DNA from: Candidatus Omnitrophota bacterium
GTDB taxonomy: Bacteria > Omnitrophota > Gorgyraeia > B26-G9
Assembly: GCA_043806135.1 (NCBI GenBank)
Contig: JAZDHG010000098.1
Location: 1,660 to 65,659, forward strand
DNA: 64,000 nt
Direction: 5' to 3'
Shown: in pieces, positions 2,894 through 56,217 of the stretch
How the letters are laid out: each line of letters begins with the position of its first letter
How positions within the stretch are numbered: the first letter of the stretch is position 1
Notes under the pieces: model-generated
Seen by the model: only the letters and a program-made list of their open reading frames with translations
Database searches by the model: none
Told to the model about the DNA's origin: nothing
Program-made: the position numbers and the translations under genes

Positions 2894-5800
2894 GTGATCA
2901 AAATGTTTAACGCTGGCAAAAAATATAATCTGGCTTTCAGAATAATATCGGCGTTCATTATCCAATCGTTTCTGATTATGGATATTGCTTTTGCTGCCGG
3001 CGGCGACCTGAGATGGATAAAGAAACCTCAAGTTCCCCAATCAAACCTGGCCCCGACTTTCAACATGGAAAAGGGCGCTTTCCGTACAAGATTTGACCTA
3101 ATCGTTTCTCTGATGAACGCTTTTAAAAATAAAGATGAATTGAACTTAGAGCAAATGCGTTCTATGGGAATTAAGTATTTTACAGATTCTATTCTTCAGC
3201 TAAGAGGAGAAAATGAAGTCCTCTATATTTATGAATCCGACAGCAAGGATATCCCGGCTTTTCTTCAAAAATCAGATAATAAGGTCCGCTTTAACGGGTA
3301 TGTGATCGCTGCGGTAACACTTAGCGAACTGGAAAGAGCGGAAAAACCTGCTTTTGACATAAGTAAAGAGGAGTTTAAAAAACAGGGGCTTTTTCCCCGT
3401 CTTAGAATAAAAGTCGAAGAGTACCAGCGAAGAAAACAGTTCATAGATACTTCTGGTCATTATAAGCTTGCTGCTTCTCTTTTAAATGAAGCAATTGATC
3501 TCCCGGAAATGGTCGAAGAACTGCTTTCCAACACCGGAAACCTTAAAAAACTTTATGCTGTTCTTGGTAAAGCCAAAAAGAAATATAATCTGGAAAAAGA
3601 AATTAACTCAAGCCAGCGGCTTTTCATAATAAATGCTTTGCGTGATTTTGATTTTATGCCAAAGGAAACTATCGATGAGCTGAAATGGCGTGCTGAGCAG
3701 GAAGGAATTAATGTAAAGCAACTTGAGCGTCTGAGTCTTGCCAAACTCCGTGTTGAAGGGGCAGCTCAGGCAATTAAAACACAAAGGCCGATCAATGTAT
3801 TTGAGGCTATCAAAGATATTACTTCGCTTGAAAAAGAAATGCTTGATCTTACGGACGAACAGCTTAAAGGGAAAACCGCAGAGTTAAGAGACAGGCTTTA
3901 TGGAAAAGGAAACTTTTCCGGCAAACAGGAAAATTGGGAAGATGTTTTGCCTGAAGCGGCGGCGGTTTTCCGCGAGGCGCTAAGGAGAAAACATCCTGAT
4001 CATCCGCTGCTTTATGATGTTCAGATGATCGCGGGTATTGTCGTTTCTTTCGGCGGCAAGCTCTTACAGCAGTCAACAGGTGAAGGTAAAACATTTACCA
4101 CTGCACTTGGCGCATACTTGCTTTCACTGCGTGATGAAATAAAAACAGGCGTGCATTGCGCAACTGTAAACAACTATTTGGCGCAAAGAGATGCTGAAGA
4201 GGTGGGCAACGTTTTTCAAGCACTGGGCATGAGCGTTAGTGCCTTAGGGGAAGATCATAAAGGTATAAAAATTGTAAACGGCCGCGCAGAAGACACCGAT
4301 CGCAGGAGTGCTTATGAAAGCGACATTGTTTACGGCACAGCTCATGGCTACGGATTTGATTATCTGCAGGATCATCTCAGTACAAGAGTCGGGACAAAGG
4401 TTCAGAAAGGGTTTTTCGCTTCTGTAATTGATGAAGCTGATGAGATCCTGGTTGAAGAAGCTAATACGCCGTTGGTTATGTCCGGCGCTGCTGAAGAAAT
4501 GCCGGAAAAAGAAAGAAATATAAATTACCAGATAGACAATCTCATCAGAAGCTTAATGACCCGTAATGAAAATCAGAAGTATTTCAAGATAAAGCTGGAT
4601 GGAGGAGACAGCCGCAGCGTTACATTTACTGAAGCGGGTTATGATTATATTTACGGCATACTTTCCGGCATGAGTGAAGAGGAATTAAACGACCCGAACC
4701 GGTCTTTTAATGAAGAGCTCGATAGTGAATGGGCATATTTGCGCGCCATTGCGGATAATGCCTTAAAAGTACATCACCTTTATGTTAAAGACACTAAGAG
4801 CGATGAGGCTATTGCAATCGAAGAAGGTAAAATTCGTTACGCGGTTGCAAACGGAGAAGTGTTAACTGTTGCCACAGGCCGAACCCAGGAAGGCCGGCGC
4901 TTTAAAGACGGAATTCACCAGGCATTAGAAGCAAAAGAGCATAATGAAGAAGTACTGGCAGGAATAACTCCGACCATTGAGGTAAGACAAGACCCGGAAA
5001 CAGTTGCCAGTATTTCATTACAGAGTTTTTTTAAAAATTATCTCATCCTTTCCGGGTTAACCGGAACTACCCAGGGTATTGAACAAGAAGTAGCGGAGAC
5101 TTACGATCTTGATACCTTGAATATTCCTACGAATAAGCCGAGCATTCGCCAAGATCTGCCGGATGTCATTTTCAAAACAAAAGAGCAGAAAGATGCGGCA
5201 GTAGCTGCGGATGTCATTAACGAGCATGAAAATGCTACCCCTGTTCTTATTGGAACCGGCGGTGTAAATGAATCTGCGGAAATGGCTCTAAAAATTCAAC
5301 AGGCATTTCCGCGGGCAGTGGGAACAGAAATCATTGATTCAAAAGAGGCTTTGATCAGCCTGGCAGCCAGGATTTTAAACCGCGAAGTTAATGAAAATAA
5401 TCTTTTTAAAGCACTGGAAGAGATCAAAACAAAGGGTGATTTCGGCAAAGAAACTCCCATATTTGTTTTAAATGATACCACTAAGCACCTCGAAAAAGAA
5501 ATAGTGCTGCTGTCCGGATTAAAGGGGTCGATAACTGTGGCTACGGATATGGCCGGCCGCGGTACAGATTTTAAACTGGTTGATTTTGCCAGGATGGTGC
5601 AGGGTTTGTATGTAATAGGTACTGAATATCCGGAAAGCCTGCGTACGGAATACCAGCTGCGCGGCCGAAGCGCCCGGCAGGGACAGCCGGGAAGAACGCG
5701 TTTTTATATAAGCCTTGAAGACAAACTTTTCACCGGTCTTGGCGCAGATATTCCTAAGAAGCTTGCAGATGCAATTAAAAATTCCGGGTCTGAGATATCC

Positions 5801-8800
5801 GGAAAGATAAAGTTGAGCATTACTGTCTTGCGCGGAAAACGCCTGAGTAATGCTTTTAAACAAAGACAGGAATTAAGTAAGGATGACGCGACCCTTAATG
5901 TTTATAGAAAGGTTATTTATAATTTGGTTGATAACCTTATCGATGAGGAACAACCTGTAGACATAGCATCAATTTTATTTTCTTTATATGGAGATAAGAT
6001 CAGCGCGCAGACCTTAGAGATGCAGAAGTCAGCGCTTCTTGAAAAGATGAGCGAGGACGATGTTAAAGCGATCATTGTTGATCTGCTTACCACGCACTGG
6101 ACATATTTTATTAACGGCCTTGAAACAATAAGTAAAACCCGCGGTTTATCAGATCAGCTTTCCGGAAAAGATGAAAAAGTCAACCGCGCTTTATATGAGA
6201 AGAAAACATCTGAGATATTCGATGAGATGCTATCAGACCTGAAGGAAAATGTATTTGCGGCATTGTTGATGCCGTTCATGTCGGAAAACGACAGGGCTGC
6301 TCTTAACAGCGAAGCAGAAGAGACTATAGCACTTGAAAAAGAAGGAGCAAGTATTTTTGATAAACTTGATCCTGAGGAGATAGCGCAAAGGATCAAAAAA
6401 GGGCTGAACATCACAGTAAAAGAAAAGGTGCCGAGTATTGCCGAGCGGTTCAGTAAATGGGTTTTTGGTGAGGAACGCGGAACTACAGCCTTATTAAGTT
6501 CTGTGCTTGCCAAAGGATTTTATGCGTTTATTACAATAGCAGGAATTTTTGGCGGGGTAATTACTCCTGCTAAAACTGAAGCTTCGATTATACCTTCTGA
6601 TGAAGGGTTAACTGTAAAAGTACAGGAAACAAAAGCAGAATTTTCCTTGAATGATAAGAGAAAAACACAGATACTGGCGGAAATTTCTTTTGCGAAGATA
6701 GCTCAGCTTGTCGACTTAAAACTTCGGTCTTCTGAGTTTCAGGAAAAATATACCGGCCGTCCAAAAGAGCAGTTACAAAGCCTGGCTTACGATGAAGTTA
6801 TCCGCGATATTATCAAAAAGTCAGAACTTGGCCAGGATGTGCTGGCTTCATTAAATGATATAAAGGAAGTTGAGCTTGAATCTATTCCTGTTGTGCAGAG
6901 AGCACAATCAGATGTTTTATCCGGTATTGTGGCTGATACGACGTTACAACAGGTTGTAAAAAAATTCCGTATTCCGGTAAAGACACCCTACCGAACAAAT
7001 CTAATGAGCGAGTTCGAAGCAATCCGTGACCAAGGACGGCGAATACATCAAGGTTTTGATTTCCTTGTACAGGCAGGTACGGATATCTATCCGGCAATGC
7101 CGGGAAAAGTAATTTTTTCAGGAGCACTTAACGGTTACGGGAACATGGTGCTGTTGGAGCATGAAGTTGCGGACAGCACAACAGGACTAGTAAATTATTT
7201 TTACACTCTATACGGGCATAATGAGTCGAATCTGGTTAAGGCCGGGGACTATATCGGAGTTGATACTGTGATCGCTAAAGCAGGAGTTACAGGCAACGCG
7301 TCATCAGCTACCGGCGGCTGCCTGCATTTTGAAATCAAACAAACCACGCAAAAAGTCACCAACTATGCTAAATACCTGAATTTGGCAGCTCTTGATCCAG
7401 AGGTTGTGTTAGGGAAAAATTTATATTTGCCTGCCGATATTAACAAACGCGAGCCGATTCTTGTTGCATCAGCAGATCCAAACATGCCTTTGTTCGCAGC
7501 GGATAGGCGGGAAAAGACAAAACAGCCAAAACCTGTTGAAGCGCGAACTCAGACAAGAAGTATTATCGGAGGCCAGATCAGGCATGAGGTAGCACCAGGG
7601 CAAACGCTTAGCATGATCGCTGAAAAATTCTTTGTTAACGGTACTTCCGGGGAAAAAATCAGAGAATTTTATAATAAACAGCATCCGGAAGCTCCTATGA
7701 AAAATTTGATGCTCCTTACCGGAAAGACACTTGTCCTGGATATAGACGAGGAGATAGCATCTTTATTAAGGCCGGAAGATAAAGACATATCAATACAAAG
7801 ACCTGATTCGGAGTTTTCTAATATAACAGAAAATATTCGAATAAGAGAGCAGGGAATAGAGGGGATAGTCAACTTGCCAGTGCGCCTTAAGGGTGGAAAA
7901 ACATCCTTTGAATTTGATGAACGCACGAAGTTTATGGCTTTGCGCGGTGAAAATAAAGACAAAAAAAATCCGGGAGTTGATTTTGTCTTAAAAGAAGAAA
8001 CGCCTGTATATGCTGCAGCTCCAGGAGAGGTTTTCTTTGTAGGTAAAGCAGAAGCATACGGCAATCTTGTTATTATTCATCATACTGTTAAGGATCAAAG
8101 GGAAAATATAAATCATTTTTACTCTCTGTATGCGCACAATAAGAGCAATAATGTAAAAGTAGGACAGTTGGTAGATGCGACAACTCAGATTTCTGTTGCC
8201 GGCAAAACAGGCAAACCGCCAATAAGTGATGCAGATGCTGTGCTTCATTTTGAAATCAGGCGCGGGATAGAAAAACTTGAAAATCATCAGGAATATCTAC
8301 ATGATGCTTCCTACAGTGCTCTTTATCCCGGAATTGCTCTGAAAACTCAGGTGTTAAATCCTGAATTGTTTTTCAATAAGACATTTGACTCAGGCCTTAA
8401 AGCAGGAAGGCTGATTGTTCCACAAAATGAATATAAGCCTTTATCTGCTCGAAATATTGAGCAAGATAAAGTAATATCCCGTCAGGATCTTGAGTATAGA
8501 ATTGCCCAAAGTATGAGAAATAGAAATTTAAACATTATCCCTGAAGGATTGATGAACGCGATTGTATATCAGCAGCTGGCTAAGGAGTTTGGAGTTGAGT
8601 TTTATCAGCCTGAGGCGGGTCTAAAGGGTGATGATTATTTTGAAAAACTTATGAAGGCGGTTCGTGCAAAGCATGGAGAAGATGTTCTTATTGTTGAAGG
8701 GCATTTTAATTCAGTACCAGAAATGATGTTCTTTTTTAAAGAAAACGGGATTCAATATATCTCTAAAGTTAAGCACGGTGAAGTAAAACAAAAAAAACAT

Positions 8801-11800
8801 GAATACCCAGATGTATCTGCAATGATTAAAGAATATGCTGTTGTTGCTGAATTCGGGTCTGCAGAATTGTTTTGCTCCTTACAACAGGAAGATTACCAGC
8901 GATATAAAATGGAATTCAAGAAAATGCTACAGCTGTATATCGATAATCATCCTGAGTGTAAAGGGAAGAAGATTGTTTTTATCCCCGGGCATGGAGGAGC
9001 AAATTATAAGACATCCTATTATATAGGGCCACAAGGACATTCTACAGGAGCTAATATTTCCAGATCAATTGTTAAAAGTACATTAGCTGAATATGATAAA
9101 TATACGCAGGATCTGCTGACTGCGGCTTTGGAAAAGGAGCATCAATTACCAAAGGTTGTGCAAGAAATAACTAGAACTGAGTTAGCGGTTATGGATTCAA
9201 GGTTAGAGCCTGTTGCAGGACAGGAAGGTATTGTAATTAGGGATTTAGCGCCAATTCCGGTTATATCAAAAGAAAAGGTTATTACTCCTAACGAAAAAAT
9301 AATCAAGCAGCCGGTTGCGCCGAAAACTCCGGAACCTACAGCAGGTGAATTCCAAAAGAAAAAATGGGAATATACAGTTAAACACGGTGATACATTGTCT
9401 GGAATTGCAAAAAAGTTGTTAGGCAGAGCTGATCTTTGGGAAAAACTTCGGGAGGATTATAACAAACAGCATCCGCAAAGACAGATACAGATAACTACTA
9501 ATGAAAATACGGGAATTATTAATGCGCTGATATATGCTGGTGAAAAATTAACTCTTGATATTGACCGGGATATTGCCGCATTGATTACGCCCCAGGCGCG
9601 GGAAAATCTGGGCATAGTTCTCAGTGCCGGCGGCCCGCCACCGTTAGCGCCTTTACCACCGCAAGAGAAACCTGAAATTACTGCGCCCCTGGCGGTCCCT
9701 GCTTATGTTGCAGCTGATGACAAGAAACAACTTGATAAAGAAAAGGTTGCTGTTCGTGCCGCAGAATTAATGGAAAAGGCGAAAAGTAAACAAGGTGAGG
9801 AGATATACTATCCGGAAAATCCTACTCCTGAGCGCAATTATGAACGCGGCATAGCCAAGGCGATCATACAGGTCATGATCAATAATAAGGACGGGGGGCA
9901 TTTTGCGGTTGCGGAAAACCCTGCTTTACAAGGTGAACTAAAAGATCTTGGTAATCTGCATTTTTATTTTCGTGATACAGGTAAAGAAATCAATGCCCGT
10001 GATAAGAGATTGTATGAACTTATTCAAAAAGATATAGCAGACAAGACAACTAAAGCAGCAGATATTGAGATATGGATCGGCAAAAAAGGAACCCCGGGTG
10101 CAAAGCCTTATATCCCTACGATAAAAGATGATCTTACTAAAAAAGAAAAACAGCTTGTATTTGATTCCTTGCTTGATATCAGTAATGTACAGCATTTACT
10201 GCATTTTTATAAATTCCCTACTCAGCTTGAAAAAAGAGACGAATTTGGCAGAGGACAGGAATTCACAAGCCCTACTGAAATCCGTGAGCATCAGGAGAAG
10301 GGATTTCCATTTGATATCTGGATTGAAAAAAGAGATACTCAGGAAAAACTCATCAGAATTTTCGGGCCTCAGAGTAAAGATTGGCAGCAATTTGTCAAAC
10401 CACCTGACCCAACAGATAAAGACCGGACATATATACAGTTTAAACCTGACTTCCTTGATTTGGTAAATAAATCCAGTGTTGTAAATAAAAAAGAATTAAT
10501 ACGGTTGTGGGAGGATTCCGAACGTACCGGTGATTATGCCTATCGCTTGCATTTTGGGTCAGTTGCGGCGAGTAAGACTCTTGAAGGTGTAAACAGTTAT
10601 GCTCTAGCTAGAGCTCTGCAGCTTGAAGTTGCCGATAAGATATTAAGCAATTTGGATATAGAAGCGCAACAGGGATTAATAAATAGGGCTAATTCTGAAG
10701 GCATTGTTTCTTTAGGTCCTAATGTTCCTGTAAAAGGAGTTGCCGGGCAGATACCGGAAAATCCAATGATGAAGAAAAGCCCTTATATAGGAGCTATTGT
10801 CGTTCAGAGAGAAGGCAACCCGGTAAAGGTAAATACATATTTTCAAAGCGAAAACCTTAATCAGAACTATGCTGAAGAACTGAAATTACCTAGGTTGGAA
10901 AAGACAGGTTTTGATATTGTTTACTATTTTTACAAGGATTCTCAAGGTAACATACAGCATAGGCGGATGCATTTCTTATCTTATAACCGTCAGGGAAAGC
11001 TGGTGGAGGTTAATGCCCGCTCTGCTCACGATATTATAGTTCTAGAAACTGACAAAAAGGCAGAGGAAAACGGGGATTGGTCAAAAAGCGATGTTCTATG
11101 GTTTGGCAAGAACGCAACCAATAAAGAAATCCTTAATGTATCTATCGGCACCCTGATGCATCAGATCGCTGTTGAAAACGCGCATAAGACCGCTAAACAG
11201 TTAAAGCGAAGGATGGTTTTTGAAGCCGTACTTCTTCCGATCAATGTTCTCGGCGGGTACGGGGTAGGCGGTATTGTATCAAAGTTGTCACAGCCATGGG
11301 CGCAGGCAGGGATACGTTTAATATATGATATGCTTTTTACTGCCTGGGAACTGCCGACAGGCGCGAAGATGCAAGGCCCGCCCAGTAAGGATACGGTTGA
11401 GACCTTTATTTCAAGTTATTTGTTCTTTACACAAGGCCCCGGAAAAAACAGGGAACAAAAAGGGCTGGAATTTATCACGACAGAAGATAAAAGCGGAAAT
11501 TTAACTATTACTGATGAAGAGTTTCGTACTTATGTTGAAAACCAGAAAAAAGATACAAAATCACCTCTTAACCTCTGGCTTACTATGGCCATGGATGATG
11601 AGGCCAGTAAAGGGTTTGTTAAATATGTGCAAGGGCAGAGAAAATTTGCTATTGCCATGTTCAGTATCGGGATTCTGGATAACCTGGCGCGTTTAAATAC
11701 AGAAAGCTATAATACACCGGGTAATGCGTTCAAAGATATTCTTGCCAGCCGGTATTTCAGTTTAACCGGAGAAGTAAATGTGTTGGCAGTAATCGGCGCG

Positions 11801-14800
11801 ATTGCCGGAAACGATGTACTTGGCGCCGGAGTGCATATGGGAGCTTTCCGCGAGGGATGGGGGAATTTCTGGGAGAATTATTTAAACTTCTTCGGTGTTA
11901 CAGTTGATGCTAAAGCTGTTATTAATACATTGAGTACTTTATTTACTAAAGACGGGAGTAAGGTATTTGAATATACTCCTGAAGTTCCGCAGAGACGTGC
12001 TTTTAGCCTTTACTTCCTTGGGTTCCCGATCATGACGTATTTTGACCTTAAAAACACAGAAGGTTTTATTAACTCTTCAACCTCGTTTGCTTTTGAAATG
12101 GAAAGCAGTAAGAATCCGTTTAATAAAAAATGGTGGAAAGATAAGGTTACCCAATACACAGAAGATGAATTTAAGCAGCTGAAACTGGTTCCGCTTGGCA
12201 AGGTAAAAGCAGAAGGTGAAAACGGACAGCCGATATGGAGAGTTTATTATATCAATGCTGATACCGGCGGGATTGTCTTCTTAGGTGATAAAGGGTACAA
12301 AAGCAAACTCCAGAGGTTAAAAGACGATGTGCAGCTTTTTGATAGATTTATGTCTTTAATCGGCGAAGGCGGCGGACGCATAGAAAAGAAAAGCTATGAC
12401 GCCGGTGCTGTAGTTGAAATAAAAAGAACAACACCATCTCAGCAGCAATCTTCACAACAGCCAATTCCGGATCTAACCGGGAAGATGCTTTCTTTTGCGC
12501 TTAATGTTAGACATCCTTTGACCGGAGTTTCTCCAAGCCATGTTTATGATACAAAGGCCACAGCCAACAATATTAACTGGGCTTTTACTTATGATATGGC
12601 TTTACAGTCTTTAGGGTTTTCCGCAGGGGGGTTGTCCAAAGAGTCGGATGCTTTACTTGATTATTTTGTTCAAAACCGTTGGTTATACCGTTATGAGGAA
12701 AAAGGTAAGTTTAACGGCGGAGTATATAATGCGATAGATATATCTCAACTTCCTACCGACACACAAAAACCCATTGCTGATTTTAGAAATGATGCAGGAA
12801 ACAGCAACTGGGTAGCAGCTGCGCTTATAAAGGGTGCAATGCGCCATGTTAGTGATCCTAATGCATGGCAGGCGGTTCTTGATGAGCAAAGAGAAGACAG
12901 GCAAAAGGCTTCGGCTAATTTCATTAAAACCGGAGATATTAATAAAATTTTTGAAGGCCGCGGGGAAACGCAGTGGCGCTTTTTAGGACTGCGTACTACC
13001 AAGCTAAAAGTTTTTCTTGAATCACTTGATGTGAAAGGAAAACAATATCTTTCTCAGGCAGAAAAAATTGCTGAGTCCCTGATAAGTTTGCAGGATAAAG
13101 ACGGCGGGATCCGTCACGGGCCGACAGAACTTAATATAAAATCAACAGAAGAAAATATAAACGCGTTTGGATTATTTATGATGCTTCATGATGTTACCGG
13201 AGAGAGCAAGTATAAAGACGCGGCTAAAAAAATCCTACAATGGCTGCCAAAAGTTTATGATACAACTCAAGGAATGTTTTTGCGCGGAATGCAAAATAAA
13301 TCAAAAGAGGATCAACCTGCTAAATGGGAAGTTGATCATATTTACGCAACAGATGCTAATGCTTTAGCAATAATCGTAATCGGACCGCAAATATTGGACA
13401 AATTAAAATCTAAAAATGAATATATTTCAGCGGATAAAATTATGGGATCGCTTGCGGACAGAAAGGTAGAACTGCTAACTGAAAGTGGAGACAAAATTTT
13501 AGGCTATGACTATACAGATAAAGTAGGCAGAGGAGACAGGGATGCTGTTATCTCACCGGAAATGACCGCTCATGTGGTTAAAGCGCATAAAGTAATGTCC
13601 AGATATTATGCTGAGCAGGGTGAAGATCTGATTGCAGATATTCATGCAAAACAGGCAGAATCCTTACTTACTAGTATTCAGCAATTAGCCGTTAACTCTT
13701 TACTTGGGATATCATTCCCTGACAGTACTCTGCCTAAAGATGCAATAGGCGGACAGATAAAAAGATATCATGACAGCAACTTTAATACTGTATCTTTAGC
13801 CAGCTTAAATTCTCTTTGGATAGTATTGGCCAAGGAAGATGTAAATCCTTTTGATGTACGCGCAAATGATCAAGTCCCTCTTATGCCTGTTTCAATAAGC
13901 GAGGAAAAAGGTTTTAATGCGGAGATAATAAAGCAGAAAACAACTATCCAGACTCTTTTGATTCGAAAACAGAATGATCCAAAATCTTGGACAGATAATG
14001 ATGAACTTGAATTGAACCAGTCCATTGAAAAGATAAATGAAATGATCCGTGAATATACAAAGGGTGCAATATTCACGGCCACAGAAGAAGATGAAACAAC
14101 ACTTAAAAGGATAATAGAACTTTTAAGTAACAAAGCCAAAGGCATACAATTAACTGATGCTGAAATAAAAGAACTGGAACAAAAGAAAGCGTCTCATCCC
14201 TATTATGAAGGGTGGATACGTCTTAGCGCGCTTTCTGAAAAAAAATTTATAATGAGTAAGTTTGAACAGATAAAACAGCTTCTAACTAAAAAAGCAAAGG
14301 AGATGCAGCTTAAGGAGTTAGGGCAAGAGTTGGATAGACAAACGGGTGTTGAAGAAAAGAAGCGTTTGCAAGAAGAGATCCAGAAACTTAAAGATAAAAT
14401 AGCTATTAGCGAGGAGTTAAAAGATCAAAAGTTTGTAGTATTAATCAATGAAACTATAGATGGCTACTTCGGTAAAGGAGAAGAAAAATCCGTAGAAAGA
14501 GAATCAACAAGAAATAGATTTTTTGGTAAACTTTCTAATACCCCAGCTGAAGATGTTGTTGTAGGTCTGATAGAAAAATTGTATGGCAAAAACAGGCTTC
14601 TCAGTGAAGATATTTTTAAGGGTGTTTATCAGTATTTCAATGCTGAAGATAACAGCGTGGTCACCGTTACCTTAATCGCTCCTGCACAGGCTATTGAAGT
14701 TGAAAGAATAAAAAGAGAAAAAGAACAGGAAACAGCAGCGAAACAGTATAAATTACTTGATGAAGGCGGAGTTATTATTACTGATAAATCAACGGGAAGA

Positions 14801-17800
14801 CTTATAGAGATAAGAGTTGGAGACAAACAAAAGGGAGTTGATGTATTAGGAGATTTTCTGGGTAGGATAAAGAATATGGTGGCTGCTGATGAAATCAATG
14901 CTGCTCAGATGCAGAAGATTATGCGCGATAGATGGGTTTTTACAATTCCAAAAACAAGTTCACAGGCTGTTGATATAAATGGGCAGAAGCAAGATCAAGA
15001 TATAACTGTTACTTTGGTTTTCCCGTATCATAGCGAATATGTGAGGGAAGAGACAAATTTAAGAACCGGAGAATCTGAACTTCGTATTTTTAATTACGGA
15101 TTACTTGATCGTGTAATTACCCGCGATAAGATTACAGTAATGAAATATAATGATCTTGATGTTGAAATTTCAAGCGATGTCTATGTGAATGAAACCGGCG
15201 AGATTATAAAAGATGCAAAGGAAGGAAGCTACTTACAGAAAACAGAAACTGTAGCTTTTGATACAAAGGATGTTGATCCTGTTTCTAAAGCGGTGAGCCC
15301 GGTGGTTATCAAAAAAGTCACAGACCCTGCTTCCCATGCGGTTAAATATGAAGTGTATAAGGATTATGAATTGCCGGTCATGACCTTTAGCGAAAAATAT
15401 GTTACGATTATTGAATTTGATGAATGGGGCAGAGAAAAAACAAGCAGAACTTATGTTAATACCGGATCGCTGGATAAACCGCGCTGGGGCAAACAACCTG
15501 TGCTTAGTTCAGAAGTTTTACCGCTTGTGGGTGAATTGGACGTAAAGGGCCGTCCGGCTACCTGGGATAAGAATTCAAAATGGTCAAGCAAGCTGGTAAT
15601 TGATCATGAAAGGAATAAACATTTTGTTGAAGTAAGGGATCAATACGGACGTCTTATCAAAAAGTATGACGGAAAAATGGAAGAAAAGCCAGGTGCCGAG
15701 CAGAACAAACTGCAGGTAATTCCTTACGGAGCGAATCAACCTTTTGAAATAGATGCCAGAGACCCGCAAGGCAGGCGCTTTGTAGTTGAGAAAGAAACAT
15801 CATTTTATCATAAATATGAGGAGCGCTTTGCTGCTCTTGGTGTTGATGCGTCTGTTATGAACCTATTAGGACTGCAGGGCACGGCTATGGTTGGGGAAAC
15901 TTATCTTTATGAGTTTAACCCGAAAACCGGACAAGGTAAAAGGGTAAGTGAAGATCCTGTCGGCAGGTCTGTGGCTCAAGTGCAGCGGCCTCAAAAAACA
16001 GGCATAGAAAAATACTTTGATGATCAAGGTAATGTTTTACTGCAGATGTCCGCACCAAGACAAAAACTTGTCTGGCAGCAGGTGATTGACAACCAGGGAA
16101 GAAAAGTTACGGATTATTATGGTTATTTGGTCGATGCTCAGGGTAGAAGAGTAACGGATATCTCAAAATATAAAGGTGATATTGATAAACTGAGATTTGT
16201 CAGGGAAAAGGTCTCTTACTCGATATATACGATAGGACAATTAAATGTTTTAAGAAAACAATACCCGAAACTCTACGATGAACTTAAAACAGAGCTCAAA
16301 AATTTGAATGTGGATATAGAATCAGAGCAATTCTTAAAAGATCTAATCTCTCAGGGGAAAATTGATGTTGCCTTAATGGGAGTAACATTTTCCTATGATG
16401 ATAAGACAAAAGCCCCTATTGAACTGGCAGCATTTTCCACAGTGCAGAAAAATGAGAAAAACAAATATATAAGTGACGGCGGAGAAGTTTTAGTTATCAG
16501 CAAAGATACACAGAAAAAGGAAGCTACTCAGCAGATAATCGATAGCGAGGGAAGAATTAAACTCAAGTACAACGGGAGATTTGACAGCAAAGCAAAACGT
16601 TTTATCAGGGAAAAGATAACCAAGTTTTTCTATACATATGAGGATCGTTTTGCCGGTGAATATTTCATTAATCCTGAGTTTGCCCGTGATATGAAAATCC
16701 TTGGCCTTTACGGCGTGGCCATGGTTGGAGAAACATTTACTTATGACGATACAACAGGCCGGCAGAGCAAAGAGCCTATTGCGTATTCTTTCTTGAGAAC
16801 ATTTAAAGACGGCAATTATGTTGACAATGAGGGTAATATCCTTGTTCAGATGACTAATGCCAACCAGCATATGAGCCGCCAGGATGTTATTAATAATCAG
16901 GGGCATACAATTATCCGGTATCTAGGAAAACTAATTGACCCCGAGACAAAGGAATTTGAAAAAGCCCAGTCATCGCGTTTTTTCTACAGCACGCAGCAGC
17001 TTGAGGAATTCAGCCAGAACGAGAAAACAAAAGGGCTTTATACTCAACTGATCAAAGAGTACGCGGCATTAGGCTGGGATATAGAAAGTCCTGCATTTAA
17101 AGCAGATCTTAATCGATATGGTAAATTCGGTGTTGCCCTTATCGGAGCAACCTATATCTATGATCAGGAGAATGATAAAGAAGTTGCTTTAATGTCTGTA
17201 TCTCGTATTAAGAAAAATGAACAAGGTGCACATATTGATGCTCAGGGTAATGTTCTTGTTGAGATGAAGAATATCATTAACAACCTGCATTGGCAGGAGT
17301 TAATTGACAATTCAGGCCGGATACAGGTTAAATATGACGGTGTTGTAATAGATGGCCAGTTTATTAGAAATCAAAAGACTTATTATTTTTATGATTACGC
17401 CAGTTATGATGCCTACCGCAAGGCACATCCTGAACTTAAGGCTGAGCTTGATGCATGGGAAGAAAAACTGACAAAACTTAAGAAAGTTAATGTTCAGGGA
17501 ATAATGGATGAACTTGGCCGCCGCAATATCGCTTTGTTTGGATTTACTTACCTTTATGATGAAGCGAATGCTGTAGCAGAAGATGTCATTAAAGAGTTGG
17601 GTTTGAATTCAGATAATAAAGAGCTTCTAAATGATATAAAAAATGAAGTATTTGCTATTGCCCAACCTGATAAGCAAAAGTCTCAGCTGGCTGTCAAAAA
17701 ATTAACTGAATTATTGGGTTCCAAATATAATTTTATAATTACAGATCAAAAGCTTGAGGGTATTGTAAAGGATAGCAGACTTAAATTAGCTGCATCTACT

Positions 17801-20800
17801 AAATATTCGCAAGTTGCTGATACAGAGGCTCTTGCTTTTTCATCTTTGAATGTAATGCAGGGAGACGGAACTGATGTTAAGGATTATTTCAGTGAAAAAG
17901 AGGGTGAAAAAGGCAATATATCGGTACAAAATGTTCGCCTAAAACAGCAGCTTACCTGGGAGGAAATAAAGGACAATTTCGGCCGTCCGGTCAAGGTATA
18001 TGACTATCAGCTTGGCAAGGACAAGAAATATCATCCCATAAAAGTCTCAAACTATTACTATGTCTATCAGGATAGGTTCAGCAAATTAGGTGTAACTGAG
18101 AGAGCAATGAATGAGATGGGCAGGCTTGGATTTGCCATGGTAGGTGAAACTTATCTGCTTAAACGAGACTCAAAAGAAGCGTTGGTATCTGTGTCTGTAA
18201 TGGTACCGCATAAAAACACAACGGGAAGTAAGTTCAACGATTATTTTAATAAAAGAGGCGAAATGATCATCGAGCTTGATAATCAGAGAACGCATCTTGT
18301 CTGGAGGGAAGTGAAGGACGCTCACGGACGCGTTCTTGTGTCCATAGACGGCAATAAAGAGAACGGTATCTTCAAGCCTCAGAAAGCAACAAGATTTTAT
18401 TATGATTTTGAAAAAAGAGTATTTGATTCTATTGCTACTAAGATGGAAAAAGACTGGGCAAAACTTGGCATAACAAAAGATAAGATGGGTGTTGAGATGC
18501 TCAATGCTATGTCGCGCCTGGGTAAATTTGATATAGCTACTTTAGGCAGTACTTATTTATATGATGGCCGTTATGAATACGGCATTAATCCTGATCTTGA
18601 TCAGCTGAATGAGAGTGAAAACAGACTGTTAGCTGTATCAATATTGGGAAAATTTGAAAAAAATGAATACGAAAAAAATGTTCCGGCTGGAGAAACAGAT
18701 TATATCAATGATGCCGGATATGTTAAAGCCATGATCTATGATGCCAAGACCAAGCTGCTTTGGGTAGGGCTTAAGGATAATAAAGGTGATATACGCGTTA
18801 AATATGCCGGTTATGAATACATGAACCCTCAGACAAAGCAGGATGAATTTAAATGGGTATGGGTTTCCAGAATAAATTATAATTGGCCTGATGAACTGGA
18901 AAACCTTGGCGCTTTAGGTATTGCTTATGATTCCAAGACATATTTTTATTATGACCCTCCTGCAGGGAAAAAGATAGAACGAGTTGATTTTCATAAGCTT
19001 GCTCCTGAAATCACGGAACTCGTGATTAGAAACGGGAAAAATGATCTGGAGGATATTTTAAAGAAGAAACTGGCTCCTTATGTGCAGGGTAAACATCACG
19101 CAAGAAAAATAATCAAAGAGATACAGGATCTTCCAAAAATCGATGATAATCAGGCAAAGAGCAATGCGATCATGGATATACTTGTCAAATATTTCTCTCA
19201 TAATATTAATTATGAATTCGGTGAAGGTGATTATCTGGTTACTGAATCCCAGATAGTACCTTTTAATTATGACCCCAATGATCCTAAAAAGAAATTAGAA
19301 TTTATAGATAAAAAAGGCAATGTTATCTTCCATATGCATCAGGTAAAAAGAAATCTTGATTATCAGGAAGTAAAAGATAATAAAGGCAGAATAATTATCC
19401 TGTTTGACGGTGATTTGGAGCCGGGGAAGAAGTTTGATTTAAGATATCAGGTATTTAACCGGAATATAATGTCTTTTTCCTATTTTGAAGATAATGATCT
19501 TGATGCAGTTGGGATTTCAAACAGAGGAGAAGCTTTCTTCTCCCGTACAAATGAAGAAACCCTGCAGGGGCTGTCTTTAACGACATTGGAAAAGGCAAAG
19601 GCTGCTTTCAGGGTATACAGAGGGACTTTAAGAGGTGACCAGCTTCTGAAATTTGATCAGGCAGTAAAGAAAGCCGGCGGTGAAGATGCTGTGGCGGCTA
19701 AGTTTCATAAAGCGGTTTTAACCATTCTCAAGTCAAATTACAGCGAGCCTAAAAATATACTTCGATTTATATCTCCTGCAGATATTGCGGAAAATATTTT
19801 TATACAGAGAAATAGTTATAATCTTGATGATTTTCTGGAAATGCATCTTGCCGGTATGTGCAGCGGATTGTTTGAAGATAAAGTCAGCAGATCATGGCTT
19901 GTAGAGATTGACAAAGAATTCTTCTGGGATACAAGCAGTGAACAAAACAAAAAGAAATGGCTTACAAGAAACGGAAATGATAAATCTGCGGCAAAAGAAG
20001 CATTGTTTAAATATATGAAATGGGATAGGCTTACTAACGATGTAAAACAACAATGGCTTGCAAGATACGAAAATAATGAAGCTCGGGCAAAGGAAGCTTT
20101 TTATAAAGATAATCTTACTTCTATAGACAGGTACATCAATGCTGAAGGAAGCATACAATACGAAGGAGAGGAGCACTGGAGATCAGACATTACCAAAGAC
20201 GGCCGGCCTATGAGCACAAAAGCAGATGTGCATTACCGCAAGATAAAAGATAAGCTCGGGCGGGTTATGAATCATATCTGGGGGTACTGGGATAAGCAAA
20301 GCGATTTTCGGGGCATAATGCAGCTTAGGGCCAGATTCGACACCTTATACGGTAAATTCGGTATTGCTGATGTTACAACTGCTTTTTTAACGGAACAGGG
20401 ATGGACATTGTTTAACTACTCAAAAGCGGTCAATCTTGAATACGAGACAGGTGCTGTAGACTATGCGGTTGTTAAAACCCTTGTTCCTGAGGACAAAAAA
20501 GAGGCGTTGAAGATGGATGAATCAAGAGCTGCTCCGCTTGAGAAGAAGTTTGAAGATTCATGGGTATTATTCCGTTTACCGAAGCCGCGTGCGGAATTAA
20601 TACGTGAATTAATAAACATAAGGCCAAGTACGGCGCAAGGAGATATAGCAGATAAAATCATTGATAAGATGATCAAAGATAAATATTACAAAGAAGGCTT
20701 TACAGACGAAGAAGATGTTGTTGCTTTTTTTGAAAAAGAAGGTATTAAGCTGGATTTTAAAACAGATAGTGAGTTTATTTCTAGGCTTTACAGAGGATTG

Positions 20801-23800
20801 CAGCACCGCACCGCAACAATCGCTGTCGCGCCGAAAGGCGATGCCGCTGAGCGTCCGAAAGTAATTCAGATGTGGATGGAAATAAAGAACAAAAAGGGAG
20901 AGCTTGAAATAATATTCAACGGCTATGTTGACCGCATTTCTGAAGCAGGTAAAAAAGGACAGATAAAGCAGATAGAGCTTGAAAAAACATATGTTACTTT
21001 TCTTGAATATCTGGAAAAGAAAAATATGGGTTTATCGCAAAGAAGTTCGACTTTTGATTTTAACCCAAATTTCATGAAAAACGGCCAGTCTACGGAAAAG
21101 ATGCTTAAGCAGTTTAAAGCAAAAATCTCCCTGCGTGCCTCTACAGACCAGCTGATATTACTGCCTGATGGGACGATGGTCTATGACATGAAAGATACGA
21201 GCAAAGATAAGCTGGCGCTGGTAAGAACTCTTTATTATCCGGACGGAAGAATTAAATTCCAGATATCCAAGAAAATGATGGGTGAAGACCCGCGCTGGAG
21301 AATTGATGTTTTTGATGAGCGCCAGAACCTGGTAGCAACACTGCGCGATGATACATCGCGTACGCCTGAAGAGGTGATTAGCAACCTCGGTAATATTGAA
21401 AACTGGCGGCCTTATGAGATACATCACTCTGTACATACTGAATATGCGCATACATTTGTGCTTACAGATATGGTAGGAGAGACCGGCATTTCCACATTTG
21501 CAGGACAGAAAGCGCTGCTGTTAAGCAACGGCAAGCCTTTGATTAAAGGTACAAATATCCATCAAAATATCGGACTATCGCAAAAAGAGCATTTTTCAGA
21601 TAAAGCGGTGCCTTACGAAGAAACAAAATATATTAATCGCCAGTTATGGTGGCTTTATTTTGATAAATTCCAAAATAATTTTATTAATCAGGTGGGTAAT
21701 ATTGGAAAACACCAGTTGGAGCGTTTTAATATCAAGCTGACCAGTGAGCGGTTTAGAGATGAACAATTGTTTGCGGATTTGCTGCAGGAGGCAAACGCGC
21801 AAAAAGCTAAGGATGATATTCAGCAGGGGGCCGCGGTTAAAGTAAGCTATTTGAAAGACGGACAGATGCAGGAAGTGGAGATCGCGCCGCGCGGATTAGG
21901 GTTTAAAATTAAAAAGATTTTTGACTATAAAATTCAGGTGCCTTTTACCGGATGGTATGTATTCTGGTGGACAATGCCGCTGGCTTTAGGAATTTATCTC
22001 TTAGGCGCAAACCGCATTACAAGCTGGTGGTGGGGAAGAAAAGCGCGCAAAGCAAAGGAAAAAGGCAGGAATAATATCAACCGCATGTGCGAAGATGAAA
22101 TAAAGGATCTCCTGCTGCCTGATAAGAAAAATGCGAAAGAGCTGGAAAAAACTGATGCCGTGAATATAGCAAGTCAAATTGTAGATCGCAGAAGGCGAGT
22201 AAAGAGCTTTATGGATGAAGCTGAAGTAGAAGAGTTCTTAGGTAAATTAGGTGTAACTGCTGAAACTATATCCAGGATCATGGATAATATTGTAGTTGCA
22301 GATATTATTCCCGACTTCTATAATGACGCGAATTTAAGATTGCAGCAAGTTAACAGGATGAATGAACAGGAACTGGCCAAATTACTGATGCAGGCAGGAG
22401 TTGAGAAAGAAACAGCGCTGAATGCATCCGAAGCCTTTGTCAAAGAACTGGCAGATAAAAAACCATTTATCAAAGCACTTGGTCAAAACGGATTTGAAAC
22501 TCTGGATCAGGTTAAGGCATTTTTAAGAGACCATGGCATTGCGTATAAGATTTTGAATACTATCTTCGGCTCAGGCGATCTTTTACGCGCACCGCCGCGT
22601 TCAGCGCAGTCAAGGCAGCAGGTAATCGATGAACTGCAGGAAATCCTTGCTGCTGCGGATATTAGCTTGGATGAATTAAACAAAGTATTAAGTGAAAAAC
22701 TCCCTGATCCAAAAGATTCTTTTGACTCTACCCTTACCCCGCCGATCGCGTTAATCGTGAAAAACCTTCTGGATGAAGAAGGCCTTGGTTTATTAACAAG
22801 AGAGCAATTTAAAGAAGTAATTAACGAGCTTATCGAAAAACTGCGTAATAACAAAAGAATCCCTTCTGCTATTGACTACTATGTCATAGAAGAATGCATA
22901 GACAAGGCCTTTAGTCCGATAGTAAAGCAGTATTTAATGGATTTAGACCCTAATAATGAACTTGAAGGTGAATACGAGCGGTTGATAAAAATGCGCTTAA
23001 GTGAAGTTCTTTCTGTAATGATAAAAAATCCTTATGGCATAAGAAAAAAAGAAAGTGGCACATACAAAGGAGAATATGAAATAGAAGAACCTGAAATGAT
23101 AGGATTGGATAAAGATAATGCTCTTAAAAAAGAAGCATTTGATGGAGAACCTGCTCCGTTTACATTGCGCTTTCAGGCATGGCAAAGTGTTTTCTTGCTG
23201 CCATATTATCCTTATAAGTTAGGATCAGCCTTGGCATCGCGTTCTACTTTAACCCGCTATTTGTTCCGTAAATCATTTGCTTTATATATGGATAAAAGAG
23301 CTAATGAGATATTACCTTTAATGAGATTACATGTTCAATTATGGAGAGCCATTATAGTTGATCAGATACAGGGCAAGCTGGAGCCTTATCGTAGAAATAA
23401 TATAGGGATAAATGAAAGGCTTATCGATGACCCTACGATATTATTTGGACAAGAAGATATGGACGATTTGTTCCGTTATTATGAAGACCCTATAAATGAA
23501 CTTAATATTAATTTAAGTCAGGAAGTCGGTAATATCAAAAATCAGCCTGATGAGAAAACTGCTTCTGATTATATACAGAAGCTTGTTGATAGCAAGCTTA
23601 AACCTGCTGTAGACAAAGCGTTAAACGAACACGAATCATTTATTGGTACTTACAGATTAGGCTGGCTGGCTTTCTGGCATGAACTCATGACTCCTTTTAG
23701 AGCGCTGTATAGCAAATGGACCGGTAAAGAACAGCGTTTTTGGACTGAAGGTACGGAAAAAGGGCCGGCAGGGTTAAAAAGCAAAAAAGGCAAACGTTTC

Positions 23801-29800: not shown

Positions 29801-30283
29801 GACTTTGTGGAGGAGTTTGGCTTTGGTGATTTAATAAAAACGCAAACAGAGCAGATTGTGAGATTATTGCTTATACTCTATATGGTTAGTAAAGAAGTAA
29901 CGATTAATATATTTGATTTACCCGATGATCCGGCTGGTTTTATAAATGCCATGGAACATCTCAATATTAATTATAAAGCGATTGAAGATGAGATTATTAA
30001 CACTGATTTGAATGTTAAGGCAAAACTTGAAAGCGGGCAATCAGTAGGACTCTTTAATGGTTTATTAGAGATAAGGGTTAATGAAAGAGGTCAAGATAAG
30101 GTTTTGGTATTAACAGTTTCAGAGTCTGCTGACAAAGAAAAGATCATTGACTTAACACCGGAGATGATCATTAAGCCTGAAGCTCAAAAGGCTACTGAAG
30201 ACGCTTTAGATAAGGCAATACCCGGAATTGAGAAAAAATTAACGCTTGAAGATACCAGAGAGCTTATTGGTAATGCAATTTAG
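2894..30283 (+). CDS. giant multidomain protein (9129 aa): signal-like leader; embedded SecA-like ATPase motor; two M23 peptidase-like and two LysM-like modules; ~9 tandem repeats; polytopic membrane domain
   Basis: Uninterrupted 27.4-kb ORF. A good RBS (AGGTGA) sits 5 nt before the ATG at 2903, which is the likely true start; the GTG at 2894 is in frame. The SecA hallmarks span nt ~3830-5950. They include [110 protein letters not shown]...[76 protein letters not shown] and an HSD-like [25 protein letters not shown]. M23 motifs: HQGFD...CLHFE (7046-7345) and NPGVD...VLHFE (7966-8265). LysM-like segments lie at 7577-7745 and 9370-9566. TM helices lie at 21950-22020, 23800-24010 and 25806-27130. 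Confidence 0.85.
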   Translation: [9129 protein letters not shown]

Positions 30284-30498: not shown

Positions 30499-30858
30499 AT
30501 GGATAAAGAAAGACGTTACAGCATAAGAAAAGAAGCACGCAATATTTCCGTAAGCCTGCGTCCGCTTGACCCTAGCGTGTGGTTTCGTTGCTGGAATGGA
30601 ACAGAATGTATTATACGTGATATGAGTATGGTCGGAGTAGGAGTATTTTCAAAAGAGAATATACCTCAAGGGACGCCTTTGAGCGTTGATTTGCGTCTTG
30701 GCGAAAGTGCCGCTACCATCCGTATTTTCGGAAAAGTGGCATGGGTTATAAAGGAAGAAAACTGCTTCAGATCCGGAGTGAGCTTTTCCTGGTGGAAGGA
30801 TGACCAGGACAAAAAAATCGCCGGCACCTTTCTTGAAAAACTATCGTCTATTAACTGA
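30499..30858 (+). CDS. PilZ domain protein (c-di-GMP-binding family)
   Basis: N-terminal ERRYSIRK (RxxxR-like) followed by DMSMVGVGV (D/NxSxxG-like). Size 119 aa is typical of stand-alone PilZ. RBS ACGGAG upstream. Confidence 0.65.
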   Translation: MDKERRYSIRKEARNISVSLRPLDPSVWFRCWNGTECIIRDMSMVGVGVFSKENIPQGTPLSVDLRLGESAATIRIFGKVAWVIKEENCFRSGVSFSWWKDDQDKKIAGTFLEKLSSIN

Positions 30859-51212: not shown

Positions 51213-51307
51213 TAAAAGTTACGATGGGATCAAAGAAAAACCTGATGCCTTTGTTAGGTCTGGTAATAAAGAATAAATTTTGACAAAATTAAAAAGGGTG
51301 ATTTGAA

Positions 51308-53206: not shown

Positions 53207-53209
53207 GCA

Positions 53210-53827: not shown

Positions 53828-53878
53828 AAACAATTTGATTTGGTTTAATTTGGTTATTAATGAAAGGAGGAAGTTTAA

Positions 53879-54538: not shown

Positions 54539-54573
54539 ATCTTATTTTGTAAAATAAAGGGTAGGGGCTAGGT

Positions 54574-55857: not shown

Positions 55858-55883
55858 TACCGAAGTCGATAACCTAAATAGGG

Positions 55884-55912
55884 TCTGCTGAAAAACTCAT
55901 CAGACCCTGATT
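55884..55912 (+). terminator. terminator-like hairpin after the GH paralog 2 (agggtctgctga...tcatcagaccct), lacking a clean U-tract
   Basis: A ~11-bp imperfect stem read from the sequence. The downstream sequence is gattatag rather than a T-run, so assignment as an intrinsic terminator is weak. Confidence 0.3.
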
Positions 55913-56217
55913 ATAGAGATTAAAGACAAGATTACATAGATTAAATATAGACGGGAAAATTACTGTAATCATTTAAAAATCTGTGTAATCATGGTTCGCT
56001 GAAAAATGTATTTCTGTTAAAAAGTGCAAGGGTTGGAACACTTTTATTCAAAAATCATGCACTTTTGGATATATTTTTGCTGCTGGTTATGTTTAAAATA
56101 CCGACAACATATGAGTTCACATTTGTATTTTCAGTGAACCCTAAATACTGGAAGAAATGGCGAGTAAGACCAAAAGGAAGTAGCGAGAAAAACTTATAAA
56201 AAAAGAAGTGGTGAGAT

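Follow-up and report, generated by a model that had tools for sequence, protein, structure and literature searches.

Old paralogues of an uncatalogued, glycosidase-like six-hairpin barrel family in a giant protein and a PilZ membrane protein of Omnitrophota

The 64-kb stretch of Omnitrophota DNA analysed here (the window) encodes a giant protein and, far downstream, a membrane protein with a PilZ domain, and raises the question of what module these two proteins have in common, what it might do, and how it came to lie in both. The initial annotation had proposed, from peptide strings which we all found in frame, that giant protein G1 (an uninterrupted 9,129-aa ORF at 2894..30283, + strand) and the PilZ protein (648 aa; 58067..60013, + strand) have a homologous domain of about 290 aa. 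The homology is borne out: BLASTP aligned the G1 segment with the PilZ protein over 275 aa at E=1e-22 (28% identity, 50% positives), with a second, N-terminal and colinear HSP (the FTYD... region) at E=0.033, and the Smith-Waterman score of 232 stands at z=37 against 300 shuffles (37.6 +/- 5.2, maximum 57). By tblastn the window holds exactly two copies, those of G1 and the PilZ protein. The domain had, however, been drawn too small; end-to-end profile alignment pairs 461 aa of G1 (aa 3195-3655; 12476..13858, + strand) with the last 368 aa before the stop codon in the PilZ protein (aa 281-648; 58907..60010, + strand), the G1 barrel being longer mainly through a 66-aa insertion, plus smaller loop insertions. 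The best reading of these data is that the two segments are old paralogues, belonging to one uncatalogued family within the six-hairpin, (alpha/alpha)6-barrel glycosidase-like superfamily.

The label of PilZ-membrane protein given to the 648-aa product proved right. Its PilZ domain (aa 4-121; 58076..58429, + strand) matches Pfam PF07238 at E=4.8e-8, with 33.7 bits against a cut-off of 22.5 and over profile positions 1-100 of 102, and its c-di-GMP motifs are intact: RxxxR as RKYIR (aa 6-10), and DxSxxG as DVSLEG. Across the full-length family members RxxxR is present in 72/72 and [DN]xSxxG in 58/72. A single transmembrane (TM) segment follows (aa ~128-148; 58448..58510, + strand; Kyte-Doolittle peak 2.66), found at the same place in all 72 of these proteins, and then a linker of ~130 aa (aa ~149-280; 58511..58906, + strand) which, from its Glu/Lys/Leu-rich composition, would form a helical or coiled-coil stalk leading to the barrel. 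Full-length homologues of this protein measure 646-677 aa, are 32-80% identical to it, and come from sources named Omnitrophica or Omnitrophota.

In G1 the barrel belongs to a giant-protein subfamily. The 66-aa insertion (aa 3317-3382; 12842..13039, + strand) was placed between barrel helices 4 and 5 by alignments A1 and A2 together with the secondary structure of the model; only the giant-protein clade has it, and extra helices are predicted within it. Pfam assigns to G1 an ATPase region resembling SecA (aa ~302-896), a pair of M23 peptidase domains and a LysM fragment, and a hydropathy scan clusters its TM helices at aa ~6975-8067, so that the barrel sits in a long TM-free stretch with the M23 peptidases and LysM. 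The topology of G1 is uncertain, because the SecA-like ATPase comes after a signal-peptide-like N-terminus. G1 is colinear with three other giant proteins (P0147, P0115 and P0111) at 37-45% identity. Some 216 nt 3' of G1 lies a small stand-alone PilZ gene (119 aa; 30499..30858, + strand; Pfam PilZ E=2.5e-8), whose product is predicted to be a second c-di-GMP receptor of the island; such a gene also follows giant P0115 in locus L003, and a small PilZ gene following a giant gene has been reported by West-Roberts et al. 2023.

How large, and how well conserved, is the family to which the two barrels belong? An exhaustive profile search of representatives gave 2,032 clusters at 50% identity with E<=1e-3, and 267 with E<=1e-30; neither Pfam nor NCBIfam has a model covering it, and NCBIfam gave no match on either barrel. 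Relatives of the PilZ-protein barrel occur in 427 species genomes, and most of the 80 listed carry an Omnitrophota label. The domain is found in three settings: PilZ-TM-linker-barrel proteins of ~650 aa, secreted stand-alone proteins, and large and giant proteins. In a set of 187 family proteins, made up of the listed representatives, the homologues that earlier searches had given and the two proteins of the window, 84 bear an N-terminal PilZ domain as well and about 35 are of at least 1,000 aa, the largest reaching 7,886 aa. Word-indexed searches added little on the giant side: the G1 domain retrieved only fragments of the same sequence, and the giant-type alignment A2 brought in six proteins, none of them giant. 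Two relatives, P0029 and P0030, are listed with the model PF28533.

Five positions stand out among 144 full-length domains (domain numbering): Asp36 (137/144), Gly90 (140/144), Glu146 (141/144), Asp202 (142/144) and Glu270 (143/144), which fall, in the secondary structure of the model, at the starts of helices 2, 4, 6, 8 and 10. The four carboxylates are nearly invariant while the subfamilies are otherwise only about 25-30% identical. They correspond to Asp316, Glu426, Asp482 and Glu550 of the PilZ protein and, in G1, to Asp3234 (12593-12595), Glu3419 (13148-13150), Asp3487 (13352-13354) and Glu3556 (13559-13561), a span of 12593..13561 on the + strand that is marked by invariant columns in alignments A1 and A3 as well as by the 144-domain conservation.

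The initial annotation had guessed at an (alpha/alpha)-toroid of either glycosidase-like or terpenoid-cyclase-like type. AlphaFold models (PilZ-protein barrel, pLDDT 92.6 and pTM 0.93; G1 barrel, pLDDT 79.9 and pTM 0.86) predict twelve helices in two rings of six, one inside the other, the arrangement of the six-hairpin superfamily; the terpenoid-cyclase or prenyltransferase-like reading, along with a LanC-like one, was rejected on lower structural scores and an absence of family matches. At the level of sequence, PDB profile matches to GH76 (E=3e-6) indicate kinship to six-hairpin enzymes, and several family members have weak Pfam matches to GH76, GH88 and GlcNAc-2-epimerase. Among the nearest known enzymes are the GH76 alpha-1,6-mannanases (PF03663; for example 4mu9, 6u4z, 6shd and 4d4a). 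On G1, PF03663 scores 27.4 bits with an 800-aa fragment and 24.2 bits with a 4,500-aa half of the protein, either side of the 25.9 cut-off and over profile positions 109-223 of 366 only; on the PilZ protein it has no match.

Membership of GH76 was nevertheless rejected, because the consecutive catalytic Asp-Asp of that family (D136/D137 in Salegentibacter GH76A; PDB entries 6shm and 6y8f) is replaced by Gly-Pro. In the profile alignment to 4mu9 the string YYDDNIW stands opposite htGpNaW, and the aligned stretch of 6shd begins at chain residue 136, facing profile position 91; where GH76 has its Asp-Asp, the barrel family has the invariant Gly90 followed mostly by Pro91, and conserves other carboxylates. 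GH15-like barrels and MmpH (dextran dextrinase 9ju0, isomaltose glucohydrolase 5z3a, glucoamylases, and MmpH 7qsj) are only ~10-12% identical to the family and gave no sequence-level match to it. In GH15, of clan GH-L, the general-acid Glu lies in the alpha5->alpha6 loop (PMC12446779); helix order in the model would place Glu146 at the end of that same loop. The alpha11->alpha12 loop, which in GH15 carries the general-base or nucleophile Glu, has no family-wide acid in residues 318-351 of the 144 domains, and GH15 membership was rejected for this reason; Asp337 is frequent in the PilZ subfamily alone (59/73) and is unmatched in G1.

We favour, with a probability of roughly 0.6, the view that the domain is a module working outside the cytoplasm that cleaves glycans, or at the least binds them, and that in the 648-aa protein would be tethered to a cytoplasmic c-di-GMP receptor. 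In (alpha/alpha)6 glycosidases the active-site funnel opens at the face formed by the N-terminal ends of the inner helices. The four carboxylates, assigned to the active site only by their position in the helix order, would lie at just these ends, and this argues for the reading as a glycan-cleaving or glycan-binding module. An unlikely alternative is that the barrel is a non-catalytic pseudo-enzyme serving as a carbohydrate-binding or scaffolding module that anchors proteins to glycan or to partners: the Gly-Pro replaces the catalytic pair of the sole family detected by sequence, the GH15 general-base loop has no conserved acid, and no curated enzyme family model attains threshold on the PilZ copy. 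Against this, four almost invariant carboxylates in subfamilies so far diverged are typical of a retained active site, and (alpha/alpha)6 families often carry acid and base on different helices. Foldseek, on the other hand, gives its top ranks to sugar epimerases and isomerases, and non-hydrolytic chemistry is therefore possible; that the barrel is an epimerase or isomerase of the AGE/cellobiose-2-epimerase type, or another non-hydrolytic six-hairpin enzyme (a lyase, or a phosphorylase-like, terpenoid cyclase or LanC-like protein), seems to us improbable as a whole.

The initial annotation had also hinted at domain exchange between the two genes and, if recent transfer is meant, this does not hold, since the copies are merely 28% identical and belong to separate, old subfamilies. 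A recent swap of the domain between these genes of the island might be suspected from the occurrence of both copies on the same strand of one 64-kb window, with an IS200-like transposase lying between G1 and the PilZ-protein gene. The relationships of each copy speak against it: the G1 barrel is closer (42-51% identity) to the barrels of three other giant proteins, which have it in the equivalent place and with the private 66-aa insertion in common, while for the PilZ-protein copy many genomes hold full-length orthologues at 47-80% identity. A neighbour-joining tree separates the two kinds fully: one clade takes all 73 PilZ-linked domains, and the other all 22 domains of large proteins. We consider a recent swap very improbable.

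Around the PilZ-barrel gene lies an operon-like cluster, all on the + strand. Upstream, Pfam assigns a sugar transporter of the MFS_2 type (49773-51212), a pair of TIM-barrel proteins resembling GH2_C/GH72 (51308-53206 and 54574-55857) and a protein with TPR/PKD matches (56218-58044); genes for two secreted proteins of ~210 aa each (53210-53827 and 53879-54538) lie among them. This upstream order (49773..58044) is kept in loci L001 and L002 and in roughly 16-18 of 80 related loci, and the cluster around the PilZ-barrel gene is conserved in L001, L002 and L010-L019. Downstream, within 60013..63107, two further genes each have a start that overlaps the preceding stop by 1 nt. The former encodes a protein of 796 aa that starts with a signal-like segment and ends in ...YEGKF, a putative outer-membrane barrel on these sequence features, for which neither NCBIfam nor a PDB sequence search gave a match; the latter encodes a 234-aa prepilin-type pseudopilin (Pfam N_methyl). 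These two genes are conserved in 19 and 13 of the 80 loci, respectively, with T2SSJ 'faint' in L001. Rfam and tRNA scans of the window were empty.

The cluster does not extend to the phylum. In most Omnitrophota it is not glycan genes that adjoin the PilZ-barrel gene but one for a TPR/transglutaminase-like protein, a nuclease or an EndoIII-like product, a point against the glycan reading; as the glycan-gene cluster is limited to the window's subclade (~16-19/80 loci), no phylum-wide argument can be drawn from it. A distant member of the barrel family does adjoin GH2_C, MFS_2 and GH94 genes. In a second genome a single 399-kb contig encodes both the giant protein P0115, whose barrel is 51% identical to that of G1, and the PilZ-barrel protein P0015; about 22 kb separate the two genes, which share a strand and keep the order seen in the window. 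With the PilZ motifs intact and this gene order kept in the second genome, the link to c-di-GMP-controlled envelope functions suggested by the initial annotation is plausible.

We propose a model in which catalysis, substrate, membrane topology, c-di-GMP binding and PilZ-barrel coupling are all points that we infer. In G1 the barrel would act on envelope glycans beside the peptidoglycan-directed domains. In the 648-aa protein the N-terminal, cytoplasmic PilZ domain would bind c-di-GMP, and the single TM helix and ~130-aa helical stalk would join it to a periplasmic barrel; c-di-GMP may thereby modulate how active a periplasmic glycan enzyme is, how it oligomerises or how it binds its partners, in a form of 'inside-out' signalling, the gene of this enzyme adjoining TIM-barrel glycosidase-like, MFS sugar transporter, putative outer-membrane protein and pseudopilin genes. 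Tentatively, and with considerable doubt, this could be extended to a phylum-wide Omnitrophota class of PilZ-TM-stalk-(alpha/alpha)6 proteins, inside-out c-di-GMP effectors whose receptor directly switches a fused periplasmic glycan hydrolase; a sister enzyme would be borne on giant surface proteins, and c-di-GMP would coordinate envelope or prey-glycan processing with giant-protein deployment.

Parallels for such a protein exist among known systems. LapD carries out inside-out c-di-GMP signalling with an EAL domain that is degenerate and, in the periplasm, a domain that traps a protease; by analogy, cytoplasmic c-di-GMP binding would alter the action of the periplasmic domain in the 648-aa protein too, although there the parts are a PilZ domain and a barrel. 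In certain exopolysaccharide operons the c-di-GMP receptor and an (alpha/alpha)6 hydrolase are two distinct proteins, as in BcsA-PilZ with the GH8 enzyme BcsZ, or PssE with PssZ in Listeria, whereas the 648-aa protein has receptor and barrel in one membrane-spanning polypeptide, and its barrel is not GH8. The alginate co-polymerase Alg44 is listed with a PilZ-TM-periplasmic domain architecture by Galperin and Chou (bioRxiv 10.1101/814665). As predicted for the 648-aa protein, its PilZ domain is N-terminal and cytoplasmic, and one TM helix leads to an output domain in the periplasm; Alg44 works in a polysaccharide system. Its periplasmic part, however, is HlyD/membrane-fusion-like, where the 648-aa protein is modelled with an (alpha/alpha)6 barrel behind a long stalk and has no HlyD-type Pfam match. 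No polysaccharide synthase gene adjoins the 648-aa gene in the window. The literature searched describes no protein in which a PilZ receptor is joined to a glycosidase-type barrel in the periplasm.

No new principle is involved: both the fold and the PilZ receptor were already known, as was the association of giant genes with pilZ genes and with a GH76-like fold. What is gained is that a sizeable domain family without annotation (some 2,000 clusters at 50% identity) is now named and bounded; its members turn up repeatedly in Omnitrophota giant proteins, which are poorly understood. In addition, a conserved ~650-aa 'PilZ domain-containing protein' is predicted to span the membrane and to fuse a c-di-GMP receptor with a glycosidase-like barrel. 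The 368-aa barrel and the 125-aa PilZ domain are small and expressible, and would allow the chemistry of the giant module and the role of c-di-GMP in the vicinity of giant genes to be tested without the 9,129-aa protein. A sister architecture also exists, in which PilZ, TM segment and linker lead to a GH2_C TIM barrel (P0037).

The giant protein G1, an uninterrupted ORF of 9,129 aa (2894-30283, + strand), and the 648-aa PilZ-barrel protein (58067-60013, + strand) contain segments whose homology, proposed in the initial annotation, is real and far above chance. All the peptide strings quoted there are in frame, and a BLASTP comparison of the G1 segment with the 648-aa protein returned E=1e-22 over 275 aa (28% identity, 50% positives); a second HSP between them, in the FTYD region, is upstream and colinear (E=0.033). 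By Smith-Waterman alignment the two domains scored 232, against 37.6 +/- 5.2 in 300 shuffles (maximum 57; z=37), and by tblastn these are the only two copies in the window. When the G1 segment was aligned with C-terminal regions from 14 proteins related to the 648-aa one (A1), the alignment ran end to end, and an HMM made from it placed the domain limits at aa 3195-3655 of G1 (nt 12476-13858) and aa 281-648 of the PilZ-barrel protein (nt 58907-60010). The domain size of ~290 aa first suggested describes the best-conserved core; the full domain is larger. The G1 barrel is 93 aa longer than that of the PilZ-barrel protein, chiefly by a 66-aa insertion (aa 3317-3382; nt 12842-13039).

AlphaFold2 modelled the PilZ-protein domain, on A1, as 12 helices (mean pLDDT 92.6, pTM 0.93) and the G1 domain, on an alignment of giant-type relatives (A2), with pLDDT 79.9 and pTM 0.86; the G1 model has the same helical core, plus extra helices from the insertion and four low-confidence loops, so the predicted folds agree. 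The initial annotation had suggested an (alpha/alpha)-toroid that was either glycosidase-like or terpenoid-cyclase-like. The (alpha/alpha)6 toroid holds, and its cyclase-like variant fits worse than the glycosidase-like one: fold comparison gave paired scores of 30.3 and 28.4 for MmpH (7qsj), 34.1 and 25.7 for dextran dextrinase (9ju0), 30.0 and 25.3 for the GH15-related 5z3a, 28.3 and 26.0 for CPF_2247 (3ren), ~25 and ~25 for GH76 mannanases and 27-28 and ~24-25 for cellobiose 2-epimerases, with ~24 and 22-23 for squalene-hopene-type cyclases. Foldseek was in accord (probability 1.00, TM 0.6-0.67).

Seven residues are invariant in a 27-sequence alignment whose mean column identity is 24%, and across 144 domains they are conserved as follows: Tyr35 (141/144), Asp36 (137/144), Gly90 (140/144), Glu146 (141/144), Gly193 (137/144), Asp202 (142/144) and Glu270 (143/144); Asp196 and Asp254 are nearly invariant. 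The four acidic residues of this set correspond, in G1 and the PilZ protein respectively, to Asp3234 and Asp316 (Asp36), Glu3419 and Glu426 (Glu146), Asp3487 and Asp482 (Asp202), and Glu3556 and Glu550 (Glu270). By the helix order of the model, the conserved residues occupy the N-terminal ends of helices 2, 4, 6, 8 and 10 or lie directly ahead of them, and it is on this face that (alpha/alpha)6 glycosidases form their active-site funnel. The machinery differs from that of the nearest families. In profile alignments the catalytic Asp-Asp of GH76 falls opposite Gly90-Pro91 of the barrel family, and while GH15 carries its base on the alpha11->alpha12 loop, the barrel family has no family-wide acid there, a DTGHGW motif in that loop being confined to the PilZ subfamily. 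By helix order alone, Glu146 may match the general-acid position of GH15 (loop positions of the GH15 acid and base from PMC12446779), and Asp36 may match the place of Asp47, the putative acid of MmpH (PMC9883506). The substrate-side loops are unlike between subfamilies (Trp142, Arg263, Trp271, DTGHGW); the exact specificity is probably not common to both copies.

No Pfam or NCBIfam model reaches threshold over the barrel domain: Pfam GH76 scored 27.4 and 24.2 bits on G1 against a cut-off of 25.9, the PilZ-protein barrel had no curated match in either database, and other family members likewise have just weak Pfam matches to GH76, GH88 and GlcNAc-2-epimerase. An exhaustive profile search over 1.84 billion cluster representatives found 2,032 proteins at E<=1e-3, 1,074 at E<=1e-10 and 267 at E<=1e-30. 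Among 187 proteins that we analysed (listed representatives, previously found homologues and the window pair) the barrel occurs in three settings: proteins of ~620-710 aa with an N-terminal PilZ domain, which is carried by 84 of the 187, fragments included; stand-alone barrel proteins of ~370-500 aa; and ~35 proteins of 1,000-7,886 aa, some with at least two copies. The barrel is most likely a six-hairpin glycosidase-like family that is new and unclassified and has two uses: it would serve as a module within giant envelope proteins and, widespread in Omnitrophota, as the output domain through which a membrane-spanning PilZ c-di-GMP receptor acts in the periplasm. Catalysis by the barrel, its substrate and its coupling to c-di-GMP are what we infer in this reading, the main value of which is that the chemistry of the giant-protein module becomes testable through the small protein. 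A GH76-like domain, predicted from structure, has been reported inside an Omnitrophota giant protein (West-Roberts et al., bioRxiv 10.1101/2023.11.21.568195); in the literature that could be searched, we found no (alpha/alpha)6 barrel described in fusion with a PilZ receptor, and no account of homology between such a barrel and a giant-protein module.

[quoted passage not shown] Full-length relatives retain RxxxR and the transmembrane segment in 72/72 cases and [DN]xSxxG in 58/72. To encounter c-di-GMP, the PilZ domain has to be cytoplasmic; with a single transmembrane segment, the C-terminal barrel would then be periplasmic. In one relative (P0037; L008 1614-3677) the same PilZ-transmembrane-linker module is joined to a GH2_C-like TIM barrel, replacing the toroid, which supports the view that a glycan enzyme in the periplasm is what the module drives. 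When one genome per species was scanned, 427 stretches encoded a relative of the PilZ-type barrel; the 80 listed are labelled mostly Omnitrophota or Omnitrophica, others being 'uncultured Planctomycetia/Planctomycetales', 'uncultured bacterium' and PVC group, with one record each from Ratteibacteria and Eisenbacteria. The PilZ domain was seen just upstream of the barrel in 68 of these 80 loci, and contig ends cut at least some of the rest. Auribacterota is among the names on other family members. PF28533 is a precomputed match on two PilZ-barrel relatives (P0029 and P0030).

The initial annotation also hinted at domain exchange between the two genes, and a recent one is not supported. The domain of G1 shares 51% identity with that of the giant protein P0115 (5,775 aa), 46% with that of P0111 (6,278 aa) and 42% with that of P0147 (6,383 aa), but only 26-35% with PilZ-type domains; all three giants have the insertion and are colinear with G1 over aa ~2300-4200, P0147 also over the SecA-like N-terminus. 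A neighbour-joining tree built from 144 full-length domains has two clades: one contains 73/73 PilZ-linked domains along with 13 more, most of which look like truncated ORFs of that type, and the other contains 22/22 domains from proteins of at least 1,000 aa; this split implies that the window copies are old paralogues of distinct subfamilies. P0115, the closest giant to G1 (L003 10001-27328), has a precomputed Pfam match to Glucan_synthase (PF02364), which is absent from the transmembrane-rich region of G1 (aa 6970-8102).

The PilZ-barrel gene belongs to a same-strand cluster comprising, in order, an MFS_2 sugar transporter, a GH2_C/GH72-like TIM-barrel, two ~210-aa secreted proteins, a second TIM-barrel protein, a TPR/PKD protein, the PilZ-barrel protein, a 796-aa protein (60013-62403, +) and a prepilin-type (N_methyl) pseudopilin (62403-63107, +). 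Each of the last two genes overlaps the stop before it by 1 nt; the 796-aa ORF begins at the final base of the stop codon that ends the PilZ gene. The 796-aa protein, kept downstream in 19/80 loci, has no sequence match in Pfam, NCBIfam or PDB; it has a signal-like N-terminus, many aromatic residues and a C-terminus (...LIYEGKF) that resembles an outer-membrane beta-barrel signal. The pseudopilin, whose homologue in L001 has a faint T2SSJ match, suggests a pilus-like or type II secretion-like part in the same operon. The cluster is kept in relatives at 49-80% identity (L001, L002, L010-L019) but not in the majority group at ~40% identity, where the upstream gene, overlapping by ~3 nt, encodes a ~800-aa TPR/DUF3857/transglutaminase-core protein (L004/L005 7575-9998; ~20 of L009-L088). 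Downstream, most Omnitrophota have a thermonuclease-like or HhH-GPD gene, and a distant family member adjoins GH2_C, MFS_2 and GH94 genes.

G1 itself has a SecA-like ATPase region (aa ~302-896), two M23 peptidase domains and a LysM fragment by Pfam. Between the ATPase and a transmembrane-free stretch that runs up to aa 6974 there is just a weak transmembrane segment (aa 1200-1218). The barrel, both M23 domains and the LysM fragment lie in that stretch; we infer that one extracytoplasmic compartment may hold the barrel together with these peptidoglycan-directed domains. A small stand-alone PilZ gene (30499-30858, +; 119 aa, Pfam E=2.5e-8, motifs RYSIR and DMSMVG) lies 216 nt past the G1 stop codon. 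In L003, from a 399-kb contig in a different Omnitrophota genome, such a gene likewise follows P0115, with a bAvd-like gene between, and P0115 lies ~22 kb from a PilZ-barrel gene (P0015) in the same strand and order as in the window. Small pilZ genes are reported immediately downstream of most giant genes, with glycosyl hydrolases and transporters farther downstream (West-Roberts et al., bioRxiv 10.1101/2023.11.21.568195); GH2-type flanks were noted again in a 2026 preprint.

Between G1 and the next large gene is an IS200-like Y1 transposase gene (31049-31687, +); a Y1_Tnp gene is also found near the PilZ-barrel gene in L006. A gene at 32409-39938 (+) encodes a 2,509-aa protein with carbamoyltransferase N- and C-terminal domains, a radical-SAM/4Fe-4S domain and a left-handed beta-helix region, which is an unusual fusion. 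Adjoining nucleotidyltransferase (Polbeta/NTP_transf_2; 40759-41160, +) and HepT-like RNase (41172-41591, +) genes look like an MNT/HepT toxin-antitoxin module within the island. Similar hydrophobic N-terminal motifs are seen in G1 (2894-3010), a 1,989-aa protein (42006-42100) and a 290-aa protein (48471-48540), reading ...IIQSFLIMDIAFAAGG, ...ILIQSFLILDIAWAGG and ...LLMNSFLLLDI, and may be a common sorting or signal sequence.
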